Source: a virus. Taken from it: DNA of 64,000 nt. This document shows positions 1-54,655 of the stretch, in pieces. The DNA is taken from IMG/VR virus record IMGVR_UViG_3300003663_000013, one strand, 5' to 3'. The notes beneath the pieces were generated by a model. It did not search any database, was not told the origin of the DNA, and saw only the letters and a program-made list of their open reading frames with translations. Position numbers and translations under genes: made by a program. Every line of letters begins with the position of its first letter. Within the stretch, counting starts at the first letter, position 1.

Positions 1-1
1 T

Positions 2-718
2 GATACTGAATTTTCTAAAGTATTAAGAGATCAAAGCAATTATCCAGTTAAAATAAATTTCCCAGGTTCTTTGATTAATACAGGAGATTATCAGGTCATA
101 AGTGTGTTGAGCGATACTTCTGCTATAATTGCTGGGGATTTAACGGGTGAGAATAACTTAGATTATAAAGTTATAGGTAGTTTTACTCCAGGTATTTCAC
201 CTTCTGGTAGTGATAGATTCCCTTATTTCTATGATAGTTGCAGTATTGATTTAGTAGAAGAGACAGTAGTAGATACGCCACCGGCAAAAACAAGTGGAAC
301 AGAGTTTTATATTGCAAGAGTAAGAAACACAGGAGCAGCTTTAGCAGATATTCAAGACAAGAGAACAGAGTTTTTTACAGCAGCAGGAGAAAATGGTGGA
401 TGGATAGAACCTAGTTTGAATGCTAACTTTACACAAGTTGCAGGTCGTGAGATAGAATATAGAAAGAATTATATAGGTGAAGTAGAAATAAGAGGTGCTT
501 TTACGACTACCTTAACTACAGGAACAATATTTACATTACCTGAAGGCTACAGACCTATAAATACAGAAGTGGGTATTTATACAACACATGATTTTGATGG
601 ATTGAAAACACTGATAGTGGATTCAGATGGTAATGTAAGTTCAGGAGCTACTACAGGTAATGATTACGACACTTCTAATGCAAATATTATAGTTAATATA
701 AAATTCAAAACTTCTTAA
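2..718 (+). CDS. structural protein, tail-fibre-like C-terminal part (5' end outside window)
   Basis: The reading frame stays open from the window edge through the listed TTG at 71. Composition is G/T/S/N-rich. It sits at the end of an operon that stops before the promoter-like gap at 1255-1372. Confidence 0.45.
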   Translation, partial: DTEFSKVLRDQSNYPVKINFPGSLINTGDYQVISVLSDTSAIIAGDLTGENNLDYKVIGSFTPGISPSGSDRFPYFYDSCSIDLVEETVVDTPPAKTSGTEFYIARVRNTGAALADIQDKRTEFFTAAGENGGWIEPSLNANFTQVAGREIEYRKNYIGEVEIRGAFTTTLTTGTIFTLPEGYRPINTEVGIYTTHDFDGLKTLIVDSDGNVSSGATTGNDYDTSNANIIVNIKFKTS

Positions 719-720
719 TT

Positions 721-1254
721 ATGTTAAAATTTTATTATACAAATATAAGTGAGAATGGAGGAATTCAAACTCGTTCAGATTTAAGTTTAGGAGGGTATAA
801 GAGTGCAACAGCAGTTCCTAATGATAGTGTGGGTAATTTATTTAGTGATATTTCAGTATATTCAGTAAGAGAAAATAGAGATGAGTATATTGCATTAACT
901 CTAGTAAATGAAACAGGAGCAGAAGTAACAGATGTGACTTTGTATTTTGATTATCCTGAAAATAGGCAAAAAGATATAGAATTAGCATTTGTTAATTTTA
1001 ATGCAAGTGATGAGATTGAGATTATTCCTAATTCATATTCTAAGCCTTTTAATGCTGTTTTTAATGCAGCAGATGGAGTGAATAATGCACTAAATATAGG
1101 TACACTTGCAGCAGGAGCAAAAATAGGTGTTTGGTTTAAAAAAGTGTTAAATATAAACAATATAAAATTACCATATAGCGATTTATCATTAGAAACTAAT
1201 GGTAATCCATTAATAGAAACAGAAGATATCTCTTTGATTGTCAGTTGGACATAG
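721..1254 (+). CDS. hypothetical protein (probably structural)
   Basis: 177-aa ORF whose ATG lies 3 nt after the previous stop. No recognisable motif. Confidence 0.5.
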   Translation: MLKFYYTNISENGGIQTRSDLSLGGYKSATAVPNDSVGNLFSDISVYSVRENRDEYIALTLVNETGAEVTDVTLYFDYPENRQKDIELAFVNFNASDEIEIIPNSYSKPFNAVFNAADGVNNALNIGTLAAGAKIGVWFKKVLNINNIKLPYSDLSLETNGNPLIETEDISLIVSWT

Positions 1255-1317
1255 TTTTTGGGATTTATTTCTTTTTTAGTTTGGAGAAGGGTAAAATGAA
1301 ATATTTTTGACTTTCTT

Positions 1318-1348
1318 TTTGTTTATTAAAATATATTTTATATATTTA
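1318..1348 (+). promoter_or_regulatory. Bacteroidetes-type promoter (TTTG -33, TATATTTA -7)
   Basis: TTTG at 1318-1321 and TATATTTA at 1341-1348 with a 19-nt spacer. Member of a recurrent box family seen at 16095, 36769, 38511, 41644, 51980 and 59307. Confidence 0.5.
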
Positions 1349-1372
1349 TATTGTAAAAATAAGTGGCAATAG

Positions 1373-1903
1373 ATGAAACAACAAATATACAATCTACTTT
1401 GCAAGTACTATGAAAAGATATACCAAAAAGTATTAAAACGTGGAGACTTTGTATTTATCCCTACTAAAAGAGAAAAAGTACAGATAAGTAATTTTGTAGA
1501 CTTTTTAGATGAAGAAATAGGAATAAATTCAATAGGAGAAGATTGGATATTTAATTATACTATTTATATATTTAAACAAAGAAAAGAACAAAAGACAAGA
1601 TATAAGAATCACATTCCAGTAAATTGGATATATGGTAAGAAGTCATATGAATTATATCAAAAAAGACATGAGAAGTGGGTTTATTTCAACGATAAGTTTA
1701 TAAGTGAATATAATATAAGGAAACCAAACTTAGAGGAGCAAATGGAGTTAAACACAGAAGAGTATTATGAGAAATTACGTAAACAATACTATGATCAAGA
1801 ATTTCCTCTAAGTTGGTGTTTTAATACAGTTGTTTATAACAAAAAGAGTAAATATTGTTTGAGGTGTAAAAGTAAAATGGATTGTAAGATATTGAATAAA
1901 TAA
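1373..1903 (+). CDS. hypothetical protein with C-terminal Cys cluster
   Basis: 176-aa ORF downstream of the promoter-like box. C-terminus reads CLRCKSKMDC. Confidence 0.5.
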   Translation: MKQQIYNLLCKYYEKIYQKVLKRGDFVFIPTKREKVQISNFVDFLDEEIGINSIGEDWIFNYTIYIFKQRKEQKTRYKNHIPVNWIYGKKSYELYQKRHEKWVYFNDKFISEYNIRKPNLEEQMELNTEEYYEKLRKQYYDQEFPLSWCFNTVVYNKKSKYCLRCKSKMDCKILNK

Positions 1904-1928
1904 GGAAGGTTGAGGGTGAAACAATTAT

Positions 1929-1975
1929 CTTTAACGATTGCAGATATGCCCAGTTTGGGATTAAATAGTAAAAAC
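1929..1975 (+). repeat. attC-like site, short type (homologous to 3243-3291)
   Basis: Reads CTTTAAC-GATTGC-...CCCAgtttGGG...ATTAAATAGTAAAAAC and aligns with 3243-3291. The small stem covaries between the copies (CCCA/TGGG versus CCGC/GCGG). Confidence 0.4.
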
Positions 1976-1992
1976 TTTAAATTATAGATAAA

Positions 1993-2295
1993 ATGAATAA
2001 AAATGTAGAAACTTCAAATGAAACACAGATACCCAAATTGGGTATATCTGATGTTATGCACTGTGATTATCAGCAAAAACTTTTTCACGAAATTGTTGGT
2101 ATGAAACACAGAATGCAAGGATTGGCTGGATTTGTCCAAAACGATTTTGATAAAATGTTGGAAGATGGTACAACCACTAAAGATGGAATTAAAGAAGCAA
2201 TTGAAGATATGGACAAATCGTTTGATAAAGTGATAAACGAAATGAATATACTTCGTGAAAAATGTAGAGTGATAATGTCTTATCATTGCGCCTAA
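1993..2295 (+). CDS. hypothetical cassette protein
   Basis: 100-aa ORF. Its TAA stop (2293-2295) lies inside GCCTAAC (2290-2296). Confidence 0.5.
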   Translation: MNKNVETSNETQIPKLGISDVMHCDYQQKLFHEIVGMKHRMQGLAGFVQNDFDKMLEDGTTTKDGIKEAIEDMDKSFDKVINEMNILREKCRVIMSYHCA

Positions 2296-2579
2296 CGGAC
2301 GAGTGTATGAATAGTAAAATTACGGATATGGAAAAAGTATATGAATTTTGGTATAACGACTGCATTTACGAAAGTGCGGCTGCTTGTATGAGTTTGCACA
2401 GAACACGCAAGGGTGCAGAAATGGCAATGGAATTTCACAAAGAGCAGAAACGTAAGGAGTTTGAAGAACTCTACAAAGATGAGGATGATATTGACTGGAC
2501 TTTTGATAGTATGAGTGCGTGGGGTGTTTCTGAAAGGGAAGTAGTTGAGTAATTTTATTATTTATACACATTGTTGTGG
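2290..2579 (+). repeat. attC-like site whose 20-bp stem encloses a whole ORF
   Basis: Layout is GCCTAAC (2290-2296), a 6-nt spacer GGACGA, the 5' arm at 2303-2322, the 3' arm at 2550-2569, ATT, then GTTGTGG (2573-2579). The 5' arm pairs with the 3' arm over 20 bp, including 2 G-T wobbles. Confidence 0.55.
2307..2552 (+). CDS. hypothetical protein (start and stop codons both inside the long stem)
   Basis: ATG at 2307 is the likely true start of track ORF 2286..2552. 81 aa with an acidic C-terminus. Confidence 0.5.
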   Translation: MNSKITDMEKVYEFWYNDCIYESAAACMSLHRTRKGAEMAMEFHKEQKRKEFEELYKDEDDIDWTFDSMSAWGVSEREVVE

Positions 2580-2603
2580 TGGCGAAGCGAACGTTTTAAT
2601 GCA

Positions 2604-2726
2604 CCACAACGGTTGGGTGTATGAGCAGTAGCCGAACACAAAACTTGATTAGAAGTAGAAACTTAAATATTAACAACTGCAATAGTTTAAACGCCTAACA
2701 GCTATTGCTTATACACTTTGTTAGGC
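2604..2726 (+). repeat. attC-like site (123 bp), ORF-less cassette
   Basis: Layout is CCACAAC (2604-2610), a 6-nt spacer, a 16-bp stem (2617-2632 with 2701-2716), TTT, then GTTAGGC (2720-2726). Homologous and equal in length to 54217-54339. Confidence 0.6.
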
Positions 2727-2735
2727 AACGTTTTT

Positions 2736-2972
2736 ATGAAAATAGCAATGATACCAGCAGATAATAATGGCAATATACTTTGGCTAAAAGAACTAAGGAC
2801 TGAAAATAGCAGGGCATTTATAAAATACAAAAGCACTTATAACGATATGCCATTTGCCGAAACTGAAATATTTGCAGTTGATGGCGGGAAAAACTTTGTA
2901 ATTACAGGCGACGACGGAACTATACTATACCGATTTTCGGCAAATTGGTTGGTTGGATTAAATGTTGCCTAA
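2736..2972 (+). CDS. hypothetical cassette protein
   Basis: ATG at 2736 is in frame with track ORF 2718..2972. The stop TAA (2970-2972) lies inside GCCTAAC (2967-2973). Confidence 0.5.
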   Translation: MKIAMIPADNNGNILWLKELRTENSRAFIKYKSTYNDMPFAETEIFAVDGGKNFVITGDDGTILYRFSANWLVGLNVA

Positions 2973-2998
2973 CGTTAAAATATAAAAAATCGTTGCGA
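2967..2998 (+). repeat. attC-like site, minimal or degenerate (32 bp)
   Basis: GCCTAAC, 18 nt, then GTTGCGA. The inverse core is the exact complement of the previous core GTTAGGC (2720-2726). Confidence 0.4.
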
Positions 2999-3000
2999 TT

Positions 3001-3249
3001 ATGAATGAGGAACTATTTGGAGAATTACACGAAGAAGAACAATATGGCTTGTTTGGTCAAGAACATCACAAGCAATGTTTTTTATATAGTGTTAGCGACC
3101 GTACTTCACCTAATAATAGGCTAAAAATAGAGCCTGTGTTTGATGGAATAAGTACAGCCGTTTCACAATATAAGGTAACTGACGACTTAGGTAGTATATG
3201 GATGGTAGGAACAAGAGAAGAATGCGATGCGTATTTGTATGGTCGCTAA
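3001..3249 (+). CDS. hypothetical cassette protein
   Basis: 82-aa ORF. AATCGTTGCGATT (2988-3000) upstream pairs with GGTCGCTAACGATT (3241-3254), which contains the stop codon. Confidence 0.5.
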   Translation: MNEELFGELHEEEQYGLFGQEHHKQCFLYSVSDRTSPNNRLKIEPVFDGISTAVSQYKVTDDLGSIWMVGTREECDAYLYGR

Positions 3250-3291
3250 CGATTGAGTGTAACCGCATGTAGCGGATTAAATAGTAATAAC
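3243..3291 (+). repeat. attC-like site, short type, core site not identifiable
   Basis: Layout is TCGC(T)AAC, a 6-nt spacer GATTGA, GTGTAACCGC-atgta-GCGGATTA, ending TAATAAC. Homologous to 1929-1975. Confidence 0.4.
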
Positions 3292-3309
3292 TTATCAAAA
3301 TAAACGAAT

Positions 3310-3564
3310 ATGAACAAAGAGCAGAATACTTCGCAAACCACAGAATCCGCTATTGCGGTTGACACTGTGTTAGCAACTGGGCTTTATTGTATTAAAGTTC
3401 AAGCTAATCATGATTGTTGGATTGCCGATTGGAATGGTGACCCTGGAAGAACATTAGTAAAAGAAAACGCAAAAACATTTAAACGTAAATCGGATGCTGA
3501 AAAGTTATGCAACGAAATGAAGATAAAATATCCAAATCGAAATGTTTGGGCCGATGTCTTTTAG
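3310..3564 (+). CDS. hypothetical cassette protein
   Basis: 84-aa ORF followed 7 nt later by TGCTAAC (3571-3577). Confidence 0.5.
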   Translation: MNKEQNTSQTTESAIAVDTVLATGLYCIKVQANHDCWIADWNGDPGRTLVKENAKTFKRKSDAEKLCNEMKIKYPNRNVWADVF

Positions 3565-3570
3565 CCTTGT

Positions 3571-3640
3571 TGCTAACGTTTTGAATATGTGGCGGCTTGT
3601 GTTGCGCCTGCGGCAAGCTGACATATATTTGTTGTTACCA
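3571..3640 (+). repeat. attC-like site
   Basis: Layout is TGCTAAC, a spacer, the stem ATATGT-GGC-GGCTTG / CAAGCT-G-ACATAT (3585-3626), then GTTACCA (3634-3640). The loop CGCCTGC can also pair with GCAGGCG at 3654-3660. Confidence 0.5.
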
Positions 3641-3711
3641 ACTGGCGGTTTATGCAGGCGTTGATTAAATGAACAGAAGTAATAATTAAATATTTTTTAG
3701 GGAGGGTTTTT

Positions 3712-4182
3712 ATGATTTTAAAACACAAAAGAGACAAGTTGCTTCAAGATATTTCAAGTGATTTGCATTTGGGTAGAATATCCGCAAAAGAAGCAATTGA
3801 AGAAGCTAATCTCTTAAATCAAACAACAATGCAAATAACGAAAGCATACAATGTGCAAATATGGGTAGGATTACAAGAAACCTACGATAAAGAAAAATTG
3901 CATACAATTAATGAAGTTGAAACCATTTGCCAAGATTTTGTAAATGAAGTTAAAGATTGTGTAACTGTAACACCAACAAAGTTTAAATATGTGAATGGGG
4001 GTGAAAACGGAGCTGTTATCGGCTGGATTAGTTATCCAAGATTTCCAAGAAAACGAAAAGAAATAAGAAAACGTGCTTTGGCTCTTGCAGAAAAATTAAT
4101 GAATGAATTAAACCAGTACCGAGTAACGGTAACAACGCCACTTAAAAGCTATATGCTTGAAAATAAAAACGTAGAACGATGA
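3712..4182 (+). CDS. hypothetical protein (first gene of a two-gene cassette)
   Basis: 156-aa ORF preceded by a strong SD-like GGGAGGG 5 nt upstream of the ATG. This is atypical for the rest of the genome. Confidence 0.55.
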   Translation: MILKHKRDKLLQDISSDLHLGRISAKEAIEEANLLNQTTMQITKAYNVQIWVGLQETYDKEKLHTINEVETICQDFVNEVKDCVTVTPTKFKYVNGGENGAVIGWISYPRFPRKRKEIRKRALALAEKLMNELNQYRVTVTTPLKSYMLENKNVER

Positions 4183-4973
4183 GCAAAGAAGACAAAGCAA
4201 TTAAATTTATAAGAACCATAGCAGCCAACACAAACAAGCCTTTATATGCAGGTAATAGTGGCGGTAAAGACAGTGCTGTAGTTGATAAGCTATTGCAGCT
4301 TAGCGGTATTGAATACCAAAGCTACTACACAAACACCACTGTTGACCCCAAAGGTACAATAAAGCATATTAGAGAGCATTACCCGCATACTGAAATACTA
4401 CACCCAAAAGAAAGCTTTTACCAACTTGTAGAGCGCAAGGGATTACCGACACGACTAAGTAGATATTGTTGTGAAGACCTGAAAGAGTATGCTTCTGTAG
4501 GAAAAATGGTGTTTGAAGGTGTGAGGAGTGCAGAAAGCAGAAAGCGACAAGGTAGAGACTACGTGCAATGCGATAATAGAAAATGGCAAAAAGGAGCGCA
4601 ACACATTTACCCGATTTACGATTGGAGTGATGAAGATGTTTATAGCTTTATTGAAAAGCACAATATTAAACTTGCACCACATTACAAATATGCAGATAGG
4701 CTTGGGTGTGTTGGTTGCCCTTTAGTAAGCAGAAAAGGACATAGAGAAAAAGAGTTTGCTATTTACCCGAAATATAGAAATGCTATAAAAAGAGCTATAA
4801 CTAAAGGAATGGCAAACAACCCACAATGGAAACTTAGTTGTGCAACTGATGGAGATGGAGAAAAAGCAATGCTATGGTGGTTGAGTGGTAAGACAATGAA
4901 CGAGTTCTTTAAACCTTACAGTTTTGAAAAAACTGAGGCGGGGTGGCAAAAATATTTAATTACGGACAAGTAA
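4179..4973 (+). CDS. PAPS-reductase-family PP-loop ATP pyrophosphatase
   Basis: N-terminal PP-loop motif NSGGKDSAVV. Length and Cys pattern are typical of phage PAPS-reductase-like proteins. The start overlaps the previous stop (ATGA). Confidence 0.65.
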   Translation: MSKEDKAIKFIRTIAANTNKPLYAGNSGGKDSAVVDKLLQLSGIEYQSYYTNTTVDPKGTIKHIREHYPHTEILHPKESFYQLVERKGLPTRLSRYCCEDLKEYASVGKMVFEGVRSAESRKRQGRDYVQCDNRKWQKGAQHIYPIYDWSDEDVYSFIEKHNIKLAPHYKYADRLGCVGCPLVSRKGHREKEFAIYPKYRNAIKRAITKGMANNPQWKLSCATDGDGEKAMLWWLSGKTMNEFFKPYSFEKTEAGWQKYLITDK

Positions 4974-5014
4974 GTACTGACCTTGATTAAATGCACTGCC
5001 TTTCTTCCGCTTGT

Positions 5015-5109
5015 TGGTAACGGACGAGTGTATGGCAAGTAAGCCACGCACGAACCTTGATATTAACCACAGAATTTGATTGGCTTATTTGCTATACACA
5101 TTGTTATGC
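5015..5109 (+). repeat. attC-like site (95 bp)
   Basis: Layout is TGGTAAC (5015-5021, the complement of GTTACCA at 3634), a 6-nt spacer GGACGA, an 18-bp stem (5028-5045 with 5082-5099), ATT, then GTTATGC (5103-5109). Confidence 0.6.
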
Positions 5110-5251
5110 AAAGTGCCTTAAAATATTGTTATGAATTATGCAGGTTTACTCAGTAATAAGGTCTGTAAGTATCGAAGATAACAGGTTCGCACTGAAAACA
5201 ATTGAAAAAGCAAAGAGAATCTGGGAGCAGACGAAGCCTTTCCTGCATTTT

Positions 5252-5349
5252 GCATAACGGGCCGGTTACATGTTGTCGAAAGCCAACCACAACCGACCGA
5301 TTCAGCGCACCGCCTTTGCATGGCTTTTGCAATATGTAACTTGTTACAA
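5252..5349 (+). repeat. attC-like site (98 bp)
   Basis: GCATAAC (5252-5258) is the complement of GTTATGC at 5103. A 6-nt spacer follows, then an interrupted stem: 5265-5275 with 5330-5340, and 5279-5285 with 5321-5327. It ends TT, then GTTACAA (5343-5349). Confidence 0.6.
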
Positions 5350-5443
5350 ATCTGGTGCGGGAAACACCACAAAAGCTGATTAAATGAGCGAACGTAAAAA
5401 AAGAAAAAAAAGGGAGGGCTTTTGAAATTATTTTATCTTAATA

Positions 5444-5475
5444 TTTGGATATTAAATATATTATCCGTATATTTG
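5444..5475 (+). promoter_or_regulatory. Bacteroidetes-type promoter
   Basis: TTTG at 5444-5447 and a perfect TAnnTTTG (TATATTTG) at 5468-5475 with a 20-nt spacer. It is embedded in a 12-bp direct repeat ATATTTGGATAT (5441-5452 and 5469-5480). Confidence 0.5.
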
Positions 5476-5491
5476 GATATAAATTAGAATA

Positions 5492-5725
5492 ATGAAACAG
5501 ATGAAAGCATATAGATTATACAAAGGATTCAACAAAATAGGAGAATTTGATTCTATTTTAGAGGCTAAAAAGAATGCGCCTAAAGAAGATGGGATTTATA
5601 ATTTGAAAGGCGAAAATTACAGAGATAGTTGGCAAATCATTAATGGAACTTATTATGGCGAACGAAACTTGGGAATACAGATTGCAGAAATCTGTGAGAT
5701 GGGATTCAGAAGATGCAATAGATGA
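5492..5725 (+). CDS. hypothetical protein
   Basis: 77-aa ORF downstream of the promoter-like box. It overlaps the next ORF in another frame. Confidence 0.45.
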   Translation: MKQMKAYRLYKGFNKIGEFDSILEAKKNAPKEDGIYNLKGENYRDSWQIINGTYYGERNLGIQIAEICEMGFRRCNR

Positions 5726-5933
5726 TGTGATTTATTTTATACAAAACGAATTTATAAACGAATGGTGTTTAACATCTGATGAAATGCCAACAATAGGGCA
5801 AAGATGCTGGTGTGTAAATGATAAAAATGATTTGTATTTGTGTATTTACTCTAAATTTTCAGTATTCCGAAAAAAACCAACCTTTAATAATATGCTTGGA
5901 AAGGGATGGGAAGTTCAGAGCGTAGTTAAGTAG
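5643..5933 (+). CDS. hypothetical protein (true start may be the ATG at 5655)
   Basis: 96-aa ORF with balanced composition. It overlaps 5492..5725. Confidence 0.45.
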   Translation: MELIMANETWEYRLQKSVRWDSEDAIDDVIYFIQNEFINEWCLTSDEMPTIGQRCWCVNDKNDLYLCIYSKFSVFRKKPTFNNMLGKGWEVQSVVK

Positions 5934-5956
5934 AAGCCGCTAAAAACACCTGAATT

Positions 5957-6127
5957 ATGATTGAGTGGTTACAAAAAAACAAGGAATTTCTTTCCATACG
6001 TGGAATTGAAAAGCATTTAGGAATGCCGGATTCAACTTTAATAAAAGCTGTAAACGGAGTTCAAAACTTACCTGAGAAATGGAAACAATCTTTGGAAGAT
6101 TTCATAAAGGTTTTGCAAAAACCTTAG
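5957..6127 (+). CDS. small helix-turn-helix-like protein
   Basis: 56-aa ORF not in the track (translated by eye). The segment LSIRGIEKHLGMPDSTLIKAVNG looks like an HTH. Confidence 0.35.
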   Translation: MIEWLQKNKEFLSIRGIEKHLGMPDSTLIKAVNGVQNLPEKWKQSLEDFIKVLQKP

Positions 6128-6239
6128 TGCGCGGGCTTTTTTCTTTTTTGGTCAAGTTGCACCGACCTATCATTTAAAAACTGTCGCAGCACTTGTTTGT
6201 AACTACTATATATCAAATTATCAATTTAATTTATTGATT

Positions 6240-6559
6240 ATGAATAAATTTGCAGAGTCAACTTTAAGAAAATATGAAAAATATCTTAAAGTTAAAAATT
6301 ACTCAGATAGAACTATTGATTTAATGGTCAAAATTCTTTACAATATAGCACTACAAGTTGTAATAAATTAGTCAAAAAATATCTTGGAGAACAATATCAT
6401 TTCCATTTACTTAGACACGCTGCATTTACTCATTTAACAGATCAAGGAGTAGATATTAGAGCAATTCAAAAACTTGCTGGACATAAATCAAGTAGGACTA
6501 CTGAAATCTATACTCAAGTAAGTACACAAGTTTTACATAAATTACCCTTGGCACTATAG
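6240..6559 (+). pseudogene. tyrosine recombinase (integrase) remnant with internal deletion and frame change
   Basis: The N-terminal fragment (6240-6371) encodes a SAM-like domain start, ESTLRKYEKYLKVKNYSDRTI. A second frame (6320-6559) encodes the C-terminal catalytic region HLLRHAAFTHLTDQGVDIRAIQKLAGHKSSRTTEIYTQ. The roughly 200-aa core between them is missing. Confidence 0.75.
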
Positions 6560-6569
6560 TAACTATAAA

Positions 6570-7151
6570 ATGAAGATATTTAAACCACATAAAGGAATTT
6601 GTATTGATTGTGATCAAGAAAAATGGATAGTAAATAGTAAAGGTCAGTGTGAAGAATGTAGATATAAGCAGAATCATGATGGAAAAACTAAATTAGAAGT
6701 ACAAATAGAGAAAGAAAAGAGTAAACCTAAGAAAACCTACCAGTTAAAAAGAACACCGTTAAAAAGGTCTAAAAAGACATTTAAACGAAGTTTTATAAAA
6801 CAAAGTAAAGAATCAAAAGAAAAAAGAGACGAAGTACTAAAAAAAGATAGAGAAACTTACTTGGAAGTATTTAATACAACCCCTAATGAATGTGAAGAAT
6901 GCAGATTAAATGGAATACATACTCCCTTACCAGATCAATTCGAAGATGAAGAAGGGAATATTATTGGTGTGTGGCAGTATTCACATATATTGGCTAAATC
7001 AAGTTTTCCTGAATATAGACATAAAGTAAAAAATTTTAATCGTTTGTGCAGGGAACATCACGATATATATGAATTCGGAGACAGAGAAAGTATGAAAATA
7101 TATAAACCAAATCAAATAATAATACAAAAACTAAAAAATGGAGAATTATGA
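6570..7151 (+). CDS. Zn-ribbon / HNH-like nuclease-fold protein
   Basis: Carries CxxC...CxxC pairs and a C-terminal HIL...N...LCREHH motif. The exact family is uncertain. Confidence 0.4.
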   Translation: MKIFKPHKGICIDCDQEKWIVNSKGQCEECRYKQNHDGKTKLEVQIEKEKSKPKKTYQLKRTPLKRSKKTFKRSFIKQSKESKEKRDEVLKKDRETYLEVFNTTPNECEECRLNGIHTPLPDQFEDEEGNIIGVWQYSHILAKSSFPEYRHKVKNFNRLCREHHDIYEFGDRESMKIYKPNQIIIQKLKNGEL

Positions 7152-7433
7152 AAGCAACATTAGAAAGTAGAATAGAGCAATTAGAAGAAAGAGTATTGGA
7201 ATTAGAAAATAAAAAATCAATTAAACCATTAGTTGTTATTAAGGTTCCTATTAATTTATCAATTAAAGAAGTCTAATACAATACTGATATTTTAAAAAAA
7301 GAAATGACAGATTATCACATACTTGTAGTTCAAGATAATGTTGATTATCCAAAATTTGAAGTATTTTGTGAAGACAACTTGAATAAATTAAATAAAGAAG
7401 AATTCGATAATTTATTAAAAAACAACCTTAAAA

Positions 7434-7970
7434 ATGAAAAATAGAGAAATTAAATTTAAAGCATTCATCCCAGAATTAAATATAATCTTAGACGATGTTA
7501 CTATATATGGTAATGGTCAAATGGGAATAGGAGTAGATGAATTAGAAGAAAGTCTTCCTAAAGGATATCAATTATATGAAGATATTATTTATTTTATTGA
7601 TGAAGAAAAAGATATATTTGATAGAGTAATGAGTATACTTCCAGGAGAAGATTGGGTTTGGTTTGAAGAAAATCAATTCACACCTTTACAATACACAGGA
7701 AAGAAATCAATAAAAGGGAATGAATTATATGAAAACGATATTGTGTTTGAAGAAATTCCTACAGAGTATGGAGATAGAAGAATATTTTTTATTGTAAAAT
7801 GGATTGAAGAATTAGCAGTATTTACATTTCTTCACTATCACGAGTTTATGGAATATGAAGATAATGGAATTAAAGCATTAGATGATTGTGAGTATTATGA
7901 CTTAAGTGGTTCAGAAAAAATGCATTATAAAGGCAATTATTTATTGAATCCAGATATTTTTGAAATTTAA
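7434..7970 (+). CDS. YopX-family protein
   Basis: The N-terminal REIKFKAF motif is typical of YopX. Paralogue of 55582..56025. Confidence 0.5.
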   Translation: MKNREIKFKAFIPELNIILDDVTIYGNGQMGIGVDELEESLPKGYQLYEDIIYFIDEEKDIFDRVMSILPGEDWVWFEENQFTPLQYTGKKSIKGNELYENDIVFEEIPTEYGDRRIFFIVKWIEELAVFTFLHYHEFMEYEDNGIKALDDCEYYDLSGSEKMHYKGNYLLNPDIFEI

Positions 7971-8033
7971 CAGTAATATATTTTTAATATTAATATATAT
8001 TTTATATTTTTAATCAGATACAAATTTAGATAC

Positions 8034-9332: not shown

Positions 9333-9963
9333 ATATAATAACAGATTTATAGCTTTAGATTGTGAAACTGGGGGATTACCTAAAAGTGGTAAAATGGCAA
9401 CAGTTGATATTTCTTTGACGGAAGTAGCTCTTGTTACAATCGAAAATGAAAAATTAGAGATAATATCACAAGACAGTTGGTTAATAGCTCCCTATGATGA
9501 TAATTTAATATATGATAAAGGGGCAGAGAGGGTTTCTGGTATAAGTAAAGAAATGTGTAAAAAAGAAGGATTGCCAATTGAAGAAGTATATCAAAATATA
9601 TTAGGAGTATTAAAAGACAACAAATTAGGAAAGAACAAACCTATCTTAATAATGCAAAATAAGTCTTTTGATACTCCTTTTATTGAAAACTTATTTCAAA
9701 TATTTGGAGATGATTTATGGAAACACATAGAAAGGGTGGAAGATACTTTGCATTGGGCTAGATACCGATGGATAGAAAAACCAAAATTTAACTTAGGTTC
9801 TATAGCAGAATATTGTGAATTAGATTTAGTCCAAGCACACAGGGCATTACAAGATACACTTATAACTGCAAAAATATGGATTAACTTCATGAAAAGCCTT
9901 AGAGGAGAAAATCAATTAACACAAAAAGAAGAAGTAAAATTTAGAGAAAAATTTAAATTTTAA
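9325..9963 (+). CDS. DnaQ-like DEDDh 3'-5' exonuclease
   Basis: ExoI motif ALDCETGGL and ExoIII motif HRALQDTLITAKIW. Confidence 0.75.
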   Translation: MAKYNNRFIALDCETGGLPKSGKMATVDISLTEVALVTIENEKLEIISQDSWLIAPYDDNLIYDKGAERVSGISKEMCKKEGLPIEEVYQNILGVLKDNKLGKNKPILIMQNKSFDTPFIENLFQIFGDDLWKHIERVEDTLHWARYRWIEKPKFNLGSIAEYCELDLVQAHRALQDTLITAKIWINFMKSLRGENQLTQKEEVKFREKFKF

Positions 9964-12900
9964 TGATCGAAAAACTTGACAAAGGTGGTTCACCTCACAC
10001 TATAGAACAATTAAACTGGGTATACGAACAATTTGAGAATGTCATAGATATGTTAGACGATAAAAGCCTAAAAGAAATATCCAGTGGTTCTCAATTTGAT
10101 GTAGATAGCTTAGTTCAAATAATAGAAGAGGAGACACTTAATATATTTACAGGCATACCAGAACCAATAAATGCAAGTAAGTTCTACAATCTAACCAACG
10201 TAACAGCCAATATACATGAAACACTTAAAGTATTAAATTACAATTACTTTAAGTTAACGATGATGCCAGGGTTCTATATCTCACCACTTAGTATTGAGTG
10301 GGGGAATATAATACAGATATATGATAGGACTTGTGTGCTGGCTTCCAGGGGTTTAGGTAAGAGTTTTGAATATTCCCTCGCTTTGCCTATCTGGAAAATG
10401 TATGGTTATAGAAGACCTTCTGAATTCAATCCAGTATCTTTAGATATAGCACGTAGAAGAGAGGGGCTGCTTGTAACAAATAAATATAAATTAGGACAGA
10501 AATTATTAGGTAAGATTGCTACAGAAATTAAAGAGAATGATGCACTTCACGAGAGATTAAAGCCAGAAAGAAAAGACGAAGGAACATTAGGTAGAGAGAG
10601 AATAGAAACAAAAAATGGTTGTGAATTAAACTTACGTTCTGCTGATTCAACAGCAAGGGGATTACACCCAGATTGGATAATAATAGATGATTATGGAGAT
10701 AATAACTGGATTTATAGTCAAGAACAAAGAGATAAAGCAATAGAAACTTTTTATGGTGATATAATGAAAACAATTGAGAGAGGTGGAACTATCAATATAG
10801 TCGGTTGTGTCTCAATGGACTCAACTATTATAACAAGAGATGGATTAAGAAAAATAGGCAATTTGTGTCCTGTAGAAAATTATAAAGAAAAAGGTTTATA
10901 TGAATATGAGATAGAAGTATTAGGTAAGAATGGGTGGAATAAGACGAGTCATTATTGGTGTAATGGATTAACTAAAACTAAAAAAATAACATTAAAGGGT
11001 GGTTATGAATTAGAGTGTAGTTTAATTCATCCTTTATGGAAAATGAATGAAAATGGGTGTCCTGACTGGTGCGAATCTAAAAATTTGAAAGTTGGGGATT
11101 GGATTGCTGTAAAAGATGGATATGATTTTGATGGAGAAAAAATAGATTTAACTGAATTTTATAGTAACTATAATGTAACATATAAGCATAAAAACATAAA
11201 AATACATAATTCTGTAGATAGAGATTTAGCTTATTTATTAGGATTATATGTTGCTGATGGAAGTTTTGAAGATACAGGTAGAATTACTATAGCTAAGTCA
11301 ATAGAAGGCATTAGAAAGTTTTTGTTAGAATATGGTTTTGTGAAAGGACAAGATATCAAATTAAGATATAATAGTAAATATTTGATTGATTTAATGCAAT
11401 ATTTGGGATTTACTAAAGCAACTGCAATAAGTAAACACATACCAGAAAAAATATTTAAAGCAGATAAAGAAACATTGAAATGGTTTTTACAAGGGATGTT
11501 TGATGGTGATGGCGGTTGTTATGTAGACAAAGATAGTTCTATTCAAATAAATTATAGTAGTATAAGTAAACAATTAATATATGATTTACATAACATATTA
11601 ATGGCATTTGGCATATTTTCATCTATTAAAGAAAGACCTCCTGGAATTTCTGAAAGAGTAAGAGGGAAACATAATCTTTATAGAATAAATATTGCAGGAT
11701 ATGATTCTAGATTATTTTTGGAAAAAATAGGATTTAGGTTTAGTGGTAAATCAGATAAGGTTACAGAAGATTTATTGTCTTCTATAAGGAGTAAAAATTC
11801 ATCTTATAGAAGAATCCCACATCAAAAGGATTTAATTAAAAAAGTAAGAAAAGAAAAACCAAGAAGAAAAAGTGGTGAAGTAAGCACACTACCACCATTT
11901 CATTCTCAAGAAGTAGTAAGTCCTAATATCTCTAGAGAGTCATTAAAAATAGTATCAGATTGGTTTGTAGAAAATGGGGCTAAAGGTGAATTTACAGATC
12001 AGTTAGTTAAAAATGGTAATGAAAATTTAGTATATTTACCTATAACAAAAATAGAAGATTCAGAAAATTACACAGTTGATTTTCATATTCCAAATAAACA
12101 TAATTTTATTACAAATGGTATTGTAAGTCATAATACGCCATTCCAAGAATCTGATTTGTACGCATATATACGTGAAAACGATAAGACATTTAAGTACTTT
12201 GAATACCCTGCTGTAATGCCAGATGGAACCATTGTTGCTCCACATAGGTGGAATATGGAAGAATTAGAGAAAGAATACGAAACCAATGGTCCATTAATTT
12301 TTTCACGTGAGATTTTAGTTGTTCCTATAAGCGATGGAAGTACAATTTTCCCTTGGGATATATTAGAGAAGTCTTTTATAGGGATGCAAGATTATAGATT
12401 AGTTACTAATAGAGATAGTTTTCCTATCAAGTTCAAATTCGTCAGTGTAGGTTGCGATTTCGCAATTTCAGGAAATATAGAAAACGCAGATGCTACTGTA
12501 TTTAGCGTTTGGGGCGTGGATGATTATGAAAATTATTGGCTATTACATATTTGGAGAAAGCAAGGAGCAAGTCACAATGAACAAATAGGCAAATTAAAAG
12601 AAATTGAGAGAAATTTTAGACCTGACGAAATAGTTGCAGAATCTAATGGTTTTCAGAAAGTTATGTTGAGTATAGGTAGAGAACATGGTATTAAAAATAT
12701 AACAGATTTTAATACTACTGGTTGGAATAAGAAAGATTTATATGAAGGTTTGCCTAGTTTAGCTATATTATTTCATCAAGGTAGAATGCGTATGCCACGT
12801 GGAGATGTTCAGAGTAAAGAAATGACAGACTGGTTATGTAGTGAATTTAATAGTATCACAATTAAGCCTGATAGTGGTAAGTTGGAGAGTGCTGGACAGC

Positions 12901-15596: not shown

Positions 15597-16074
15597 AAGC
15601 AGAGATCAAAAGTTCTTTGAGTTTTTCATAACTCTACAAAAAGAGTACATTGTAGCTGAAATTCGTAAAAAGATTTATCCAGATGCAAGTGGCAAGGAAA
15701 AGAGTGAAGAAATAATGAGAGGTAAGAAAAAGAAGATTTTTGATATTGCAATGAAAAACTCTTTAAAAACCATTTTCCCAGACATGCAATTAGGTGGAAT
15801 GTCTTTGTATGATGAAGATTTAAGAATACAATTATATGGAGAAGTATATTGTGAATTCGGGATGCCGAATTTTATATATCGAGATTCAGTACAAAAACAA
15901 AGATTAGGGTGGAAAGATAAGAAGTGTTATTATTATTTAGATAATGATTTTAAGACTCGTGACGGACATATTGGAGTTTTAAAGAGTGTAGACTTTGATA
16001 AAGAGACTTGTGTATTGAGTATTGATGGAAGCCTTGAAGAATACAGCTTTGACGATGTAAGTCGAATATTATAG
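15577..16074 (+). CDS. hypothetical protein
   Basis: 165-aa ORF that overlaps the primase gene end. Confidence 0.5.
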   Translation: MESNKRKSRDQKFFEFFITLQKEYIVAEIRKKIYPDASGKEKSEEIMRGKKKKIFDIAMKNSLKTIFPDMQLGGMSLYDEDLRIQLYGEVYCEFGMPNFIYRDSVQKQRLGWKDKKCYYYLDNDFKTRDGHIGVLKSVDFDKETCVLSIDGSLEEYSFDDVSRIL

Positions 16075-16094
16075 TAAAAATTTTTTGAATTTTA

Positions 16095-16126: not shown

Positions 16127-16158
16127 AAATTGAAATTGTAAACTAAAATCGGTATAAT

Positions 16159-28072: not shown

Positions 28073-28111
28073 AATATATTTTCTATATTTAATTAAATAC
28101 AAACTTAAACA

Positions 28112-52392: not shown

Positions 52393-52623
52393 ATGGCAAA
52401 TACAAATGATTACGGAGGACAAGGATTAAATAGAGGTAGTTCTTTTCATATAAAAAAGCCACTTGGTGAAGGTGTGGTTTGGGGTGCGAAGGCTAAAAAA
52501 TGGCTTGTACGAATAAAAAAGAATGGAATAATATGCACAATGGGAGGATACACAGATAAGCAAATAGCAGAAAGACAATATGCCATTTGTGTGGTGGGTA
52601 AATGCACTACAACGGTACGGTAA
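52393..52623 (+). CDS. AP2-domain DNA-binding protein
   Basis: GVVWGAKAKKWLVRIKKNGIICTMGGYTDKQIAERQY fits the AP2/integrase DNA-binding domain pattern. Confidence 0.55.
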   Translation: MANTNDYGGQGLNRGSSFHIKKPLGEGVVWGAKAKKWLVRIKKNGIICTMGGYTDKQIAERQYAICVVGKCTTTVR

Positions 52624-52660
52624 TATGATTAGTTGCCATACTACGAACTTTGAAATTTAG

Positions 52661-52700
52661 TAATAACTTGACAGGCAATTAATTATATTGCTTGTTGTAA
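52661..52700 (+). repeat. attC-like site, short type
   Basis: Layout is TAATAAC, a 6-nt spacer, the stem GGCAAT / ATTGCT, then GTTGTAA (52694-52700). Confidence 0.4.
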
Positions 52701-52956: not shown

Positions 52957-52965
52957 TTTTATGTT

Positions 52966-53098
52966 TTACAACGTATGGTGGTATGGTGTTGTAGCGGATT
53001 AGAAAGCACGAACATATCGAACTGTACGGAAGTAAATAGAAAGTAATGAACTTTGAATTAAACACAAAACCCGCTATGCATTATACCACGTGTTATCG
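52966..53098 (+). repeat. attC-like site (133 bp)
   Basis: TTACAAC (52966-52972) is the complement of GTTGTAA at 52694. A 5-nt spacer follows, then a 19-bp stem (52978-52997 with 53071-53089, one bulge), then GTTATCG (53092-53098). Confidence 0.55.
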
Positions 53099-53248
53099 GC
53101 TGATGTGGTTTAATTGCCTGAATTTCAATACGAACCACAAAACAGTTTTTATTTTTTTAGGGTAGGAAGAAAAATAATTGAAAAATGTTTTGGTTGTTTG
53201 AAACAAAAGTATTGCCTTTGACGTATAAATTAATAAAACGAATGAATT

Positions 53249-54168: not shown

Positions 54169-54202
54169 GCTACAGCGCATTATTTATATAATGAGTTGTA
54201 GC
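54169..54202 (+). repeat. attC-like site, minimal hairpin
   Basis: GCTACAGC, 18 nt, then GTTGTAGC, giving an 8-bp stem with one G-T pair. Confidence 0.4.
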
Positions 54203-54216
54203 ATCGTTTAAATGTG

Positions 54217-54339
54217 CTACAACGTTAAGTATATGGCAAGTAGCCGAACACGAATGATGAACAAAGATATAAATATTAATAACCAGCAGATAGTTTCTAA
54301 AACGCCTAACACGGCTATTTGCTATATACATTGTTAGGC
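54217..54339 (+). repeat. attC-like site (123 bp), ORF-less cassette, homologue of 2604-2726
   Basis: CTACAAC (54217-54223) is the complement of GTTGTAG at 54195. A 5-nt spacer follows, then an 18-bp stem (54229-54246 with 54312-54329), ATT, then GTTAGGC (54333-54339). Confidence 0.6.
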
Positions 54340-54349: not shown

Positions 54350-54556
54350 ATGGCTTATACAAAAAATTACACAGAAAAATTTAAAGTTGGTGACAAAGTT
54401 AAGTTAACCAAGAAAGTTGATTCAATGGCTGGATATTTCCCAAAAGGGGATATAGTTGAAATATGTGATATTGACGACACGAGAGGATACGGTTTTAAAG
54501 ACGAACATGGTAACAGAGTGATAGAATGTGGATGGGATTGCTGCACTTCTATTTAA
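54350..54556 (+). CDS. hypothetical cassette protein
   Basis: 68-aa ORF bracketed by GTTAGGCACA (54333-54342) and TGTGCCTAAC (54558-54567). Confidence 0.5.
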   Translation: MAYTKNYTEKFKVGDKVKLTKKVDSMAGYFPKGDIVEICDIDDTRGYGFKDEHGNRVIECGWDCCTSI

Positions 54557-54560: not shown

Positions 54561-54577
54561 GCCTAACTACTATATAT
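54561..54577 (+). repeat. terminal inverse-core plus junction GCCTAAC-TACTATATAT
   Basis: Same junction as TTGTAAC-TACTATATAT at 6197-6213. Followed by a roughly 45-nt relic of the recombinase gene start (ATG at 54600, TCAACTTTAAGAA at 54622-54634). Confidence 0.5.
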
Positions 54578-54655
54578 AAGTAAGTAAGTATAAATTCTTA
54601 TGTATTAATGCTTTACAAGTATCAACTTTAAGAATTTGGAATAAAAATAATAAAA

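Follow-up and report, generated by a model that had tools for sequence, protein, structure and literature searches.

The textbook example of a device for collecting and shuffling genes in bacteria is the integron; how phages exchange their many small accessory genes is much less clear. In T4-type phages, repeated intergenic stem-loops (PeSL) stand between small accessory genes in plastic regions with gene shuffling, and in the pdif modules of Acinetobacter plasmids genes are likewise bracketed by short recombinase sites. For integron membership we follow Cury et al. 2016, and for the IntI-specific additional domain near patch III of the recombinase Messier & Roy 2001. CALINs found in virulent phages have been read as attC clusters from bacterial integrons without an integrase (PMC9892861); in that work Qi et al. 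2023 took the sites of Polaribacter phage P12002L in this way and reported no dedicated phage recombinase, attI-like site or reversed cassette polarity. Here we analyzed a 64,000-nucleotide stretch of viral DNA (IMG/VR record IMGVR_UViG_3300003663_000013; hereafter the window) containing two arrays of hairpins which, on comparative evidence, are very probably cassette-borne sites with the role of attC in an integron-like gene-capture system of Bacteroidota phages. The carriers are phages of Flavobacteria and relatives, and the system is integron-like in its logic but is not a canonical integron.

As in integrons, the arrays consist of mostly single, small, co-oriented ORFs between imperfect hairpins whose outer boxes end in AAC or begin with GTT, the crossover would fall in the outer box, and the complementary ends of a cassette would rebuild one site in a circle. 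A fixed insertion site likewise adjoins the recombinase gene and isolates differ on that side, and the enzyme, a tyrosine recombinase with a Phage_int_SAM_4 domain at its N terminus, belongs to the Xer/IntI neighbourhood. The elements share with attC the R''-L''...L'-R' organization of an imperfect palindrome, a covarying inner stem and unpaired bases, and placing the cassette boundary at the coding-strand ..AAC box mirrors the integron convention. On the other hand, the recombinase is missing the additional domain that IntI carries near patch III (I2 helix), and the hairpin lies 5' of its cargo, with ORFs often beginning inside it, whereas attC lies 3' of the ORF. Integron cassettes are read away from attI and intI from the Pc promoter, whereas here they are read toward a co-directional downstream recombinase gene (int). 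The conserved part is the inner arm (GTRTATG/TATAYAC) with fixed G.T pairs, the 5' side of the sense strand carries the extra unpaired bases, loops can contain a whole gene, and the hosts are phage genomes, all of which differ from integrons.

Array 1 occupies positions 1929-6240 of the window on the gene strand; all features below are on the + strand. Its first element (1929..2059) has the R'' box CTTTAAC, a spacer gattg, a 19-bp stem (1941-1959/2032-2050), a spacer at and the R' box GTTATGC; the ORF 1993-2295 begins in its loop, its folding z is -2.72 and copies 81-88% identical occur in three viral contigs (L107, L174 and L108). Hairpin element A (2290..2579) is formed by R'' GCCTAAC (2290-2296), a 6-nt spacer, L'' (2303-2323), L' (2549-2569), a 3-nt spacer and R' GTTGTGG (2573-2579), and its 21-bp stem includes two G.T pairs, at stem positions 7 and 12. 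As the sequence-only reading had proposed, this one stem encloses a complete 81-aa ORF (2307..2552), entirely within the element's loop, whose ATG at 2307 is the ATG of the conserved GTGTATG and whose TAA at 2550 lies in the 3' arm; an identical protein is encoded in contig IMGVR_UViG_3300035542_000178, and there is no Pfam match. An ORF-less module follows (2573..2610; R' GTTGTGG, 24 nt and R'' CCACAAC), an empty cargo that forms a small hairpin on its own. Positions 2572-2611, which span this 38-nt module, match Nonlabens phage P12024L exactly over 40 nt, and a 25-mer from it is present in 4 viral contigs. Element B (2604..2726) comprises R'' CCACAAC, the spacer ggttgg, L'' (2617-2632), L' (2701-2716), the spacer ttt and R' GTTAGGC, and its minimum-energy fold favours a local GCCTAAC/GTTAGGC hairpin instead. 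It is followed by a 78-aa cargo ORF (2736..2972) with its TAA stop within the next R'' box, GCCTAAC (2967-2973). That box opens a weak, AT-rich element (2967..3100; L'' 2980-2990, L' 3077-3087, R' GTTAGCGACC) in whose loop the ORF 3001-3249 begins; its stem alone is unconvincing (z = +0.6) and it was counted because its boxes match those of its neighbours, over 7 nt upstream and 10 nt downstream.

The following element (3241..3377; R'' GGTCGCTAAC, L'' 3257-3278, L' 3344-3365, R' GTTAGCAAC) has a bulged stem, holds in its loop the start of the ORF 3310-3564 (84 aa) and folds with z = -3.56, none of 200 shuffles folding equally well. A short element (3569..3642; R'' GTTGCTAAC, stem 3583-3599/3614-3629, R' GTTACCAAC, z = -2.51) precedes a two-gene cargo (3712..4973) that is bracketed by GTTACCAAC (3634) and GTTGGTAAC (5013) and encodes a 156-aa product and a 264-aa protein with a PAPS-reductase domain (PF01507, E = 4.6e-14). 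Element C (5013..5109) contains R'' GTTGGTAAC, the spacer ggacga, L'' (5028-5046), L' (5081-5099), the spacer att and R' GTTATGC (z = -2.52); no ORF was found in the cassette 5110-5258. The R'' box GCATAAC of the next element (5252..5350; stem 5264-5280/5325-5341, R' GTTACAAA) complements the preceding R'. The array ends in an attI-like sequence (6196..6240), in which R'' TTTGTAAC, pairing with the R' at 5343, is joined to TAC-TATATATC, 38 nt upstream of a recombinase ATG. The recombinase is a remnant (6241..6560) of the N-terminal 43 aa and, in another frame, about 66 C-terminal aa that retain HxLRH...GH...Y; about 160 aa are missing, including the catalytic RVSE region. The whole island (1904..6569), that is, array 1, the attI-like site and the int remnant, is dispensable: it is missing between both flanking core genes in L255, the one relative of the window phage found by a TerL-based search, and its G+C deviates (0.35-0.38 across 2001-6000 vs about 0.29 elsewhere). 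A megablast of window positions 1-8000 against deposited phages returned nothing beyond one 40-nt exact match. Among ten window ORFs searched against Pfam, eight had no match, one had a marginal match to DUF7645, under the cut-off, and the other was the PAPS-reductase domain.

Array 2 (52607-54580, gene strand) begins with an element at 52607..52700 (R'' CTACAAC, 19-bp stem, R' GTTGTAAAA, z = -2.29). The R'' of element D (52964..53099; R'' TTTTACAAC, stem 52978-52997/53071-53089, R' GTTATCGG) complements the preceding R' over 9 nt. A degenerate mini-element (54169..54202; GCTACAgC, stem GCATTAT/ATAATG, R' GTTGTAGC) is followed by a 13-nt empty cargo and by element E (54216..54339; R'' GCTACAAC, L'' 54229-54246, L' 54312-54329, R' GTTAGGC). 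A 68-aa cargo ORF (54350..54556) then lies between GTTAGGC and GCCTAAC, and the array closes with a second attI-like end (54561..54580; GCCTAAC-TAC-TATATATAAG), downstream of which no recombinase gene was found.

All five hairpins listed by the sequence-only reading were recovered, together with further copies at 1929-2059, 2967-3100, 3241-3377, 3569-3642, 5252-5350 and 52607-52700 and the mini-hairpin at 54169-54202. A scan of the window for AAC-N4-8-stem-N1-4-GTT found 9 distinct elements (10 matches) on the + strand and 1 on the - strand, compared with 0-3 in shuffled sequence, and ATAYAC-N3-GTTRNR occurs four times where 0.36 occurrences are expected. The element detector is a heuristic with about 1-2 false matches per 64 kb, and AAC and GTT do not vary because the scans demand them. 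The evidence for the hairpins is comparative, not thermodynamic: single-copy folding energies are mostly unremarkable (z from +0.6 to -3.6), and single-sequence folding, tried as a discriminator, does not set the elements apart. The compensatory changes noticed between the arms held up as stem covariation in 71-123 copies from other viral contigs, each anchored independently. In the 123 unique elements, which were anchored solely on GTRTATG...TATAYAC without using the stem for selection, 93% of inner stem positions are paired vs 58% with permuted partners. In alignment A3 the stem is 94.1% paired, 10 of its 17 pairs show changes on both sides, and the covariation score is 0.395 vs 0.144 in shuffles (0/500 reach 0.395) and at most 0.123 with slid partners. 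Stem positions 7 and 12 are conserved as G.T pairs (the latter in 114/123 elements), the sense strand is the better-folding strand in 93/104 elements, and the unequal spacers seen in the first copies are general, the 5' spacer being longer than the 3' spacer by 3-4 nt in 313/358 elements. Loops that hold an entire ORF, from the arm ATG into the 3' arm, are exceptional (5/117 long-loop elements), and a rule that long loops always carry one was rejected on this count; more commonly, the cargo ORF begins in the loop and runs out via the 3' arm.

Known classes of repeats did not account for the elements. No Rfam 15 family matched the whole window at gathering score, nor positions 1900-6300 at E <= 1, and a tRNA scan found nothing. 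REP/RAYT elements and CRISPR repeats were considered and dropped, as were terminators, there being no T run, and IS200/IS605-type elements (Y1 HUH transposase, hairpins at both unit ends), here there being one hairpin per unit and a linked tyrosine recombinase. The window also holds AT-rich promoter-like repeats, which form a family separate from the hairpins.

The outer boxes, described in the sequence-only reading as an inverse core and a core of the same site, are indeed present, but each pairs with a neighbour's box and not with its partner across the hairpin. A search demanding pairing of an element's own boxes recovered almost no real copies, and we therefore adopted the rule that the 5' ..AAC box of each element pairs with the GTT.. 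box of the preceding one, so that every cargo is flanked like an integron cassette. R' of one element and R'' of the next are complementary over at least 8 nt in 60/129 consecutive pairs, as against 1.4% of random pairs and 3% of the elements' own two boxes, and the chain is perfect across 9 elements in another viral contig (L030) and through both window arrays. The full RYYYAAC consensus is matched by some copies only. Several comparisons tie the hairpin to the cargo downstream of it: hairpins co-travel with the downstream box in 243 pairs vs the upstream box in 57, and with the downstream flank in 11 cases vs 1 for the upstream flank; an ORF spans the GTT junction alone in 143 elements and the AAC junction alone in 7, and a stop codon lies within R'' in 88. 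A cargo-based test of co-travel gave 2 informative pairs and was replaced by the box-linkage, ORF-crossing and isolate comparisons. The majority of similar hairpins in different contexts (832 pairs) differ in both boxes.

In this organization, a cassette extends from just after one ..AAC box to the next ..AAC box and comprises, in order, a 4-7-nt spacer, the hairpin (arms usually GTRTATG...TATAYAC), a 1-3-nt spacer, the GTT.. box, the cargo and the terminal ..AAC box. The cargo is usually one small ORF, its start often inside the hairpin loop, and the terminal box is complementary to the cassette's own GTT.. box, so that closure of a circle would restore a single complete site whose outer stem is fully paired. 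Among the larger cargo proteins, 7 of 48 are DNA methyltransferases, and an ADP-ribosyltransferase domain, an RNA ligase and, once, TnpB were also found.

Arrays are directly followed, on their own strand, by intact homologues of the window remnant; proteins of 263-267 aa were found at this position in 242 viral contigs, alongside which there are roughly 500 bacterial Ints, and the recombinase overall has 263-271 aa. In the best 80 of these 242 loci, same-strand elements upstream number 353, compared with 19 downstream elements and 33 on the opposite strand, and where the upstream sequence extends for at least 4 kb, 49/51 loci have at least one element, and 41/51 at least three, within 4 kb. 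In addition, a conserved ..AAC-TAY-TATATAT, with its junction directly after AAC, occurs a median 61 nt upstream of 69/69 non-redundant intact int genes, and also at both window array ends. The fuzzy attI pattern alone is too permissive where DNA is AT-rich, since 34% of control windows match it; the motif is informative by its position and its per-column conservation. In some loci the fixed site is half-palindrome-like (e.g. ATATAA-CTA-TTATAT), while its partners in the arrays are long hairpins. The enzyme belongs to the Phage_integrase family of tyrosine recombinases and has the Phage_int_SAM_4 N-terminal domain; it is Xer-like and without the extra domain of integron integrases. The NCBIfam integron integrase model TIGR02249 gives 150-161 bits, in two stretches, against a cut-off of 265; the top NCBIfam match is XerA_Arch with 175-186 bits (cut-off 220), and XerD gives 146-152 (cut-off 329.6) and XerC 141-143 (cut-off 335), so that the recombinase is below every Xer equivalog cut-off. 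The best structural and sequence match is Pyrococcus XerA (4A8E; 156 bits, aligned end to end). In the alignment with VchIntIA (2A3V), profile positions 9-174 correspond to residues 11-179 and 207-255 to residues 260-308, a gap which indicates that IntI4 has about 48 extra residues there, at the site of the additional domain. The sites differ from those of Xer-dif systems in being long, variable-loop hairpins and not 28-30-bp duplex dif, and the organization differs from both Xer-dif and pdif in its directional arrays with one site per cassette. Arrays are also present in the cultured phages P12002L and P12024L, which have no recombinase homologue. In the window, array 1 has a recombinase pseudogene and array 2 lacks such a gene; either these arrays are fossils or a recombinase acts on them in trans.

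These data bear on whether the hairpins are ordinary integron attC sites, that is, a CALIN from bacterial integrons recombined by a host integron integrase, to which we assign a very small chance. The outer boxes fit RYYYAAC/GTTRRRY in several copies, e.g. GCCTAAC/GTTAGGC, and a hairpin with unpaired spacers is the expected architecture. Moreover, two P12002L sites have been flagged as a CALIN, of which attC2 recombined with attI1 under IntI1 (PMC9892861). The other site, P12002L_attC1 (minus strand, 30005-30059), has the spacer-hairpin-spacer layout of the present family and was the sole site giving no verified IntI1 recombinants (PMC9892861), and the flagged region belongs to a run of at least 9 elements (31-41 kb, minus strand). 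In addition, the array-linked recombinase scores under the integron-integrase cut-off and lacks about 48 aa of the IntI4 additional domain, the hairpin moves with the cargo that follows it and ORFs continue through the GTT box, which is the opposite of integron cassettes, the cargo is typical phage accessory content, and the insertion point in the Freya phages described below adjoins a phage-encoded integrase lacking the additional domain. The original designation of the hairpins as attC-like recombination sites thus gained from the box logic, the linked recombinase and the attI-like site, but they are not canonical integron attC.

Differences between phages in whole cassettes support the site-specific capture system that we favour. 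Three window cassettes are 98.6-100% identical to sequences in an unrelated phage contig (L147), in another order and with breaks at AAC. Window positions 2292-2575 are 100% identical to L147 7559-7842, the identity stopping exactly at ..AAC and GTT, 2608-2974 (element B and its cargo) are 99.5% identical to 5519-5885, and 3233-3578 are 98.6% identical to 7219-7564. The sequence that adjoins hairpin A on its GTT side differs between the two phages; together with the frequent differences between boxes, this suggests that exchange also occurs on the GTT side or that homologous recombination across conserved arm ends contributes. Furthermore, the cultured Polaribacter phages Freya_1, 2, 6, 9 and 10, with flanks 99.9-100% identical, carry 0 to 12 inserted genes exactly between ..AAC and ACCCCTATAAC, upstream of int. 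Their common cassettes are distal to int and their differences proximal, and Freya_10 equals Freya_9 plus one 307-nt cassette. The Freya integrase is 37% identical to the window-type enzyme, and its fixed site differs.

The same junctions could in principle reflect passive, PeSL-like hot spots for homologous or microhomology recombination with no dedicated site-specific enzyme. Many copies share 13-17 identical arm-end bases (AACGGACGAGTGTATG; TATACACATTGTT), one break of hairpin A at GTT lies inside such a shared stretch, and the majority of similar hairpins differ in the boxes on both sides, all of which fit this idea. We nevertheless see hardly any chance for it as the full explanation: the arrays are tightly and directionally tied to a single recombinase family and to a fixed site upstream, the Freya junctions are all at AAC beside int, and the boxes beyond AAC/GTT are variable yet complementary across each cargo, a complementarity that recombination through shared arms would not keep. 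The elements also differ from PeSL in having no promoter consensus, and in the linked recombinase, fixed insertion site and exact junctions.

A different possibility is that the hairpins act at the RNA level only, in RNase III-type processing, as mRNA stabilisers or as translational occluders, and that the recombinase is an ordinary lysogeny integrase. Every element is on the coding strand, the wobbles conserved on the sense strand are G.U-compatible and ORFs start in the loop or stem, as might be expected of RNA elements, and Bartlau et al. took the integrases of Freya, Leef and Ingeline as signs of a temperate lifestyle. We give this reading a small chance, since it leaves unexplained the 8-10-nt inverted boxes round each cargo that are chained through arrays, the movement of whole units between unrelated phages with breaks at AAC, the isolate differences at one fixed point beside the integrase and the one-sided pile-up of elements at the recombinase gene, and no Rfam family matches, even at E <= 1. 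An RNA role in addition to recombination may exist, and in an mRNA the stem of element A might, as the sequence-only reading proposed, sequester the start codon of its ORF.

The capture-system interpretation draws on the anatomy of the elements, their covariation, the box chain, the linkage of recombinase and fixed site and the cassette-sized differences between phages breaking at AAC. In the mechanism that we propose, the Xer-like tyrosine recombinase, whose gene closes the array on its downstream side, would carry out strand exchange at AAC or directly beside it, with a cassette site and the fixed site about 60 nt upstream of that gene as partners, and new cassettes would thereby enter beside the recombinase gene. 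We infer that this enzyme catalyses the cassette reaction and that the exact cleavage bond would be at or next to AAC. By analogy with attC, the site would act in single-stranded, folded form, and the strand concerned is probably the gene-sense one. The IntI helix is thought necessary to recognise folded attC sites (PMC7790495), and since the recombinase lacks this helix the single-strand mechanism is an analogy.

Taken as a whole, we find it reasonably probable that these elements represent a second, undescribed cassette-capture system beside integrons, common in Bacteroidota phages and present, with a flipped arrangement, in Bacteroidota chromosomes. It would use a minimal Xer-like recombinase without the IntI domain and hairpins 5' of the cassettes, would be active today in culturable Polaribacter phages, and would either have arisen independently or be a surviving relative of the integron ancestor. 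If true, a large group of aquatic phages would have a defined, site-specific route for the exchange of accessory genes. By the working rule of Cury et al. 2016, recombinases near attC without the IntI domain do not count as cassette integrases, and the linked recombinase described here, which has no such domain, challenges this rule. The system would also offer a handle on the origin of integron integrases from Xer-like enzymes (PMC7790495), and it is testable, as the Freya phages and their host Polaribacter sp. HaHaR_3_91 are cultured and natural isolates already differ by single cassettes. Lastly, an integrase in these phages has been taken as a sign of lysogeny, and a role in cassette capture would mean that this inference needs checking.

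The window is a portion of a large AT-rich tailed phage with 89 of its 95 called ORFs on the + strand, including genes for a large terminase, a DnaB-type helicase, a large DNA polymerase, an SbcC-like protein, a ribonucleotide reductase and a QueC-like protein, and no close relative was found among deposited phages. The only related phage that we found (L255) has a 65% identical TerL. The N-terminal half of the window's large terminase ORF (9963-12986, 1007 aa) matches helicase and endonuclease families, and its match in L255 (10001-14038) extends over 4038 nt, suggesting that one of the two terminases carries an insertion or is a fusion. A 541-aa ORF (22745-24370) combines a QueC-like part (residues 1-132) with an HNH-endonuclease match (residues 254-305). 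Additionally, a separate family of AT-rich direct repeats of about 45-65 nt (core AAAATATATTTTATATATTTA), unrelated to the hairpins and probably phage promoters, lies ahead of gene blocks at 1316-1378, 7978-8028, 16058-16139, 28057-28121, 36767-36829, 38512-38569, 51978-52040, 57543-57627, 58578-58628, 59270-59349 and 60439-60473, and a 184-nt direct repeat (36643-36826 and 38385-38568, 92% identical, 1742 nt apart) is found in a small-ORF region.

The five hairpins listed in the sequence-only reading were all present at their coordinates, and the stem of the one at 2290-2579 (hairpin A; 21 bp, 2303-2323 with 2549-2569, G.T pairs at stem positions 7 and 12) does enclose an 81-codon ORF, whose ATG (2307) is that of the arm motif GTGTATG and whose TAA (2550) lies in the 3' arm. 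Scanning the window for AAC and GTT around a stem, with a spacer of 4-8 nt on its 5' side and one of 1-4 nt on its 3' side, gave 10 + strand hits, which represent 9 distinct elements, and a single - strand element, compared to 0-3 in shuffled sequence. With further copies added by eye and by the logic of neighbouring boxes, array 1 contains eight hairpin elements (1929-5350) and array 2 contains four (52607-54339). The folding energy of single copies was unremarkable (z +0.6 to -3.6), and a scan of the window found no Rfam match to the hairpins. The two copies of about 120 nt have a second GCCTAAC in the loop (2693-2699 and 54304-54310), 20-22 nt upstream of the GTTAGGC box, which gives an alternative local hairpin favoured by the DNA minimum-energy fold for the copy at 2604-2726. 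In addition, CGTTTTAATG is a recurring loop motif of the shortest hairpins that is also seen in ORF-less modules, across different phages (window 2590-2599; locus L001 2190-2200 and 2520-2535; P12002L 30027-30037).

The compensatory stem changes and unequal spacers proposed from the sequence both held in a larger set. The 16-mer AACGGACGAGTGTATG occurs in 89 IMG/VR stretches and is followed by the full hairpin in 66 of them, with highly varied stem sequences. Among 123 unique elements chosen by the terminal motifs GTRTATG and TATAYAC alone, so that the stem was not selected on, the nine inner positions were paired in 93% of cells, compared to 58% with permuted partners (maximum 63%), and several stem positions showed all four Watson-Crick pairs; position 12 was G.T in 114 elements and hardly ever Watson-Crick. 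In a gap-free alignment of 71 of these elements, with the loops swapped for GAAA, the stem was 94.1% paired, both sides changed in 10 of 17 pairs, and the covariation score of 0.395 was far above that of shuffles (0.144; 0/500 at or above the observed value) and slid partners (at most 0.123). The 5' spacer was longer than the 3' spacer by 3-4 nt in 313/358 elements, and with DNA parameters the gene-sense strand gave a more stable fold than its complement in 93/104.

A feature that the sequence-only reading had not seen concerns the outer boxes. Within one element the ..AAC and GTT.. boxes pair no further than YAAC/GTTR; each ..AAC box is instead complementary to the GTT.. box one element upstream, with the cargo lying between the two. 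In array 1 the pairs are GTTGTGG 2573 with CCACAAC 2604, GTTAGGC 2720 with GCCTAAC 2967, GTTAGCGACC 3091 with GGTCGCTAAC 3241, GTTAGCAAC 3369 with GTTGCTAAC 3569, GTTACCAAC 3634 with GTTGGTAAC 5013, GTTATGC 5103 with GCATAAC 5252, and GTTACAAA 5343 with TTTGTAAC 6196, and array 2 shows the same neighbour complementarity. Across the 254 elements compared, 60 of 129 neighbouring box pairs showed complementarity of 8 nt or more, compared to 1.4% of random pairs and 3% of an element's own two boxes. Integron cassettes follow the same box logic, in which crossover within the outer box yields a mobile unit with complementary ends.

Four agreeing lines of sequence comparison indicate that the mobile unit is the spacer, the hairpin, the GTT.. 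box, the cargo and the ..AAC box, which places the hairpin at the 5' end of its own cargo. Similar hairpins in different contexts kept the downstream box in 243 pairs and the upstream box in 57, and the downstream flank in 11 and the upstream flank in 1. Of 414 array elements, 143 have an ORF of at least 50 aa that crosses the GTT junction alone and 7 have one that crosses only the AAC junction; a stop codon falls within the ..TAAC box in 88 elements. Furthermore, window segments 2292-2575, 2608-2974 and 3233-3578 are 100%, 99.5% and 98.6% identical to IMGVR_UViG_3300035542_000178, which is otherwise unlike the window, has a higher G+C and carries the three in a different order; they end at AAC, save for one end, at hairpin A, which lies at GTT. 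Given this break and 832 pairs of similar hairpins that differ in both boxes, exchange probably also takes place at the other box, or through ordinary recombination via the conserved arm ends. The 387 cassettes of all arrays have a median length of 408 nt and a median cargo of 84 aa, with one ORF in 254 and none in 19. DNA methyltransferases account for 7 of the 48 larger cargo proteins, and single cases include an RNA ligase, an ADP-ribosyltransferase domain, a Rv2179c-like exoribonuclease, the window's PAPS-reductase-domain protein and TnpB. The TnpB, found among the cargo ORFs of loci L002-L174 and the window, is an OrfB_IS605 protein whose TNB domain is Cas12f-like, so that the gene of a transposon-associated nuclease is one of the cassette passengers.

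The last ..AAC box of array 1 (6196-6203) is joined to TAC-TATATATC, and 38 nt past it starts the ORF of a tyrosine recombinase remnant, which retains 43 residues of the N-terminus plus, in a different frame, the C-terminal HxLRH...GH...Y segment, with about 160 residues between them absent. The genes flanking window 1904-6569 directly abut in L255, so array, fixed site and remnant form a 4.67-kb island, with a G+C of 0.35-0.38 compared to about 0.29 elsewhere. Both arrays end in the same fixed-site motif, and no recombinase gene follows that of array 2. As the window's recombinase is dead, we infer that its arrays are relics or depend on a recombinase from a co-infecting phage. Intact homologues of 263-267 aa lie on the same strand directly downstream of hairpin arrays in four loci, one of them a perfect nine-element chain, and their alignment as query retrieved 242 viral contigs. 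In the best 80 of these 242 loci, 353 elements preceded the recombinase gene on its own strand, compared to 19 downstream of it and 33 on the opposite strand; an element lay within 4 kb upstream in 49 of the 51 loci with enough upstream sequence. The motif ..YAAC followed by TAY-TATATAT was present in 69/69 non-redundant loci, a median of 61 nt before the recombinase gene. L255 itself has a 41%-identical recombinase elsewhere (20666-22010), with one long-loop hairpin element upstream and a sequence before the gene unlike the TAT-TATATAT fixed site.

The recombinase has Phage_integrase and Phage_int_SAM_4 domains and scores about equally against archaeal XerA, integron-integrase, XerD and XerC models, each time below cut-off. 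With Pyrococcus XerA the alignment runs from end to end; with Vibrio IntI4 it consists of two blocks that skip about 48 IntI4 residues, the region of the IntI-specific additional domain. Since this domain defines integron integrases (Cury et al. 2016), the system falls outside the strict definition of an integron; the same authors regarded recombinases near attC sites without it as not being cassette integrases. The family is large in metagenomes, where it is labelled only generically as XerD. The same short type (40-52% identical) also occurs in bacterial genomes, mostly Bacteroidota (Arundinibacter, Flavobacterium, Pseudopedobacter, Algoriphagus) plus one Desulfitobacterium, with chained arrays of identical layout located downstream of the gene and on the strand opposite to it (75 elements minus, 18 plus; for example L240 10627-15174, L218 9585-15741, L237 10880-13153 and L249 9721-16334). 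The system is thus not restricted to phages, and in bacteria the recombinase gene is flipped with respect to the phage layout.

Among the open-access papers searched, none described a phage recombinase together with a fixed site and a hairpin array as a single system, though a description may exist elsewhere. Qi et al. 2023 (PMC9892861) reported attC clusters without integrase in virulent phages, with two sites in Polaribacter phage P12002L, of which attC1 (TGCTAAC ggctac GGCTAAACGG...CCGTTTTAGCC att GTTAGGC) was the sole site without verified IntI1 recombinants. It shares the spacer-hairpin-spacer layout of the window's family and is located between two methyltransferase genes, on the coding strand; P12002L has at least 9 further elements, and no recombinase homologue was found in it. 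The recombinase would presumably catalyze cassette exchange. By analogy with integrons this may proceed on a folded single strand, for which the evidence is the strand-specific G.T pairs and the asymmetric spacers, and it would have to operate without the IntI helix that reads extrahelical bases.

Lastly, the cultured Polaribacter phages Freya_1 to Freya_10 (43,978-48,920 bp), isolated from the North Sea in 2018 on a single host strain (Bartlau et al. 2022), supply the fourth line of comparison on the mobile unit. Bartlau et al. 2022 interpreted the integrases of Freya, Leef and Ingeline as indicating a temperate lifestyle and did not mention cassettes or hairpins. Freya_1 and Freya_10 match at 100% and 99.86% identity on the two sides of a 4,921-bp block with 12 small ORFs, which Freya_10 carries at the exact junction of GTTTACAAC and ACCCCTATAACAACAATAAG, some 45 nt ahead of the integrase gene. 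Freya_2 carries the first two cassettes of the block, Freya_6 the first three and one private cassette, and Freya_9 is without only the 307-nt cassette nearest the integrase; all junctions fall between ..AAC and ACCCC. Danklef_1-5 (MT732458-62, about 38.0-41.6 kb), a different Polaribacter phage species from a different host strain, have 38% of the Freya_10 array in common, in three pieces at 97.3% identity. Shared cassettes in the Freya arrays are integrase-distal and differences integrase-proximal, the pattern expected if cassettes are inserted at a fixed site next to the recombinase gene. Since the Freya and window-type enzymes share only 37% identity and have different fixed sites, this behaviour belongs to the wider family.
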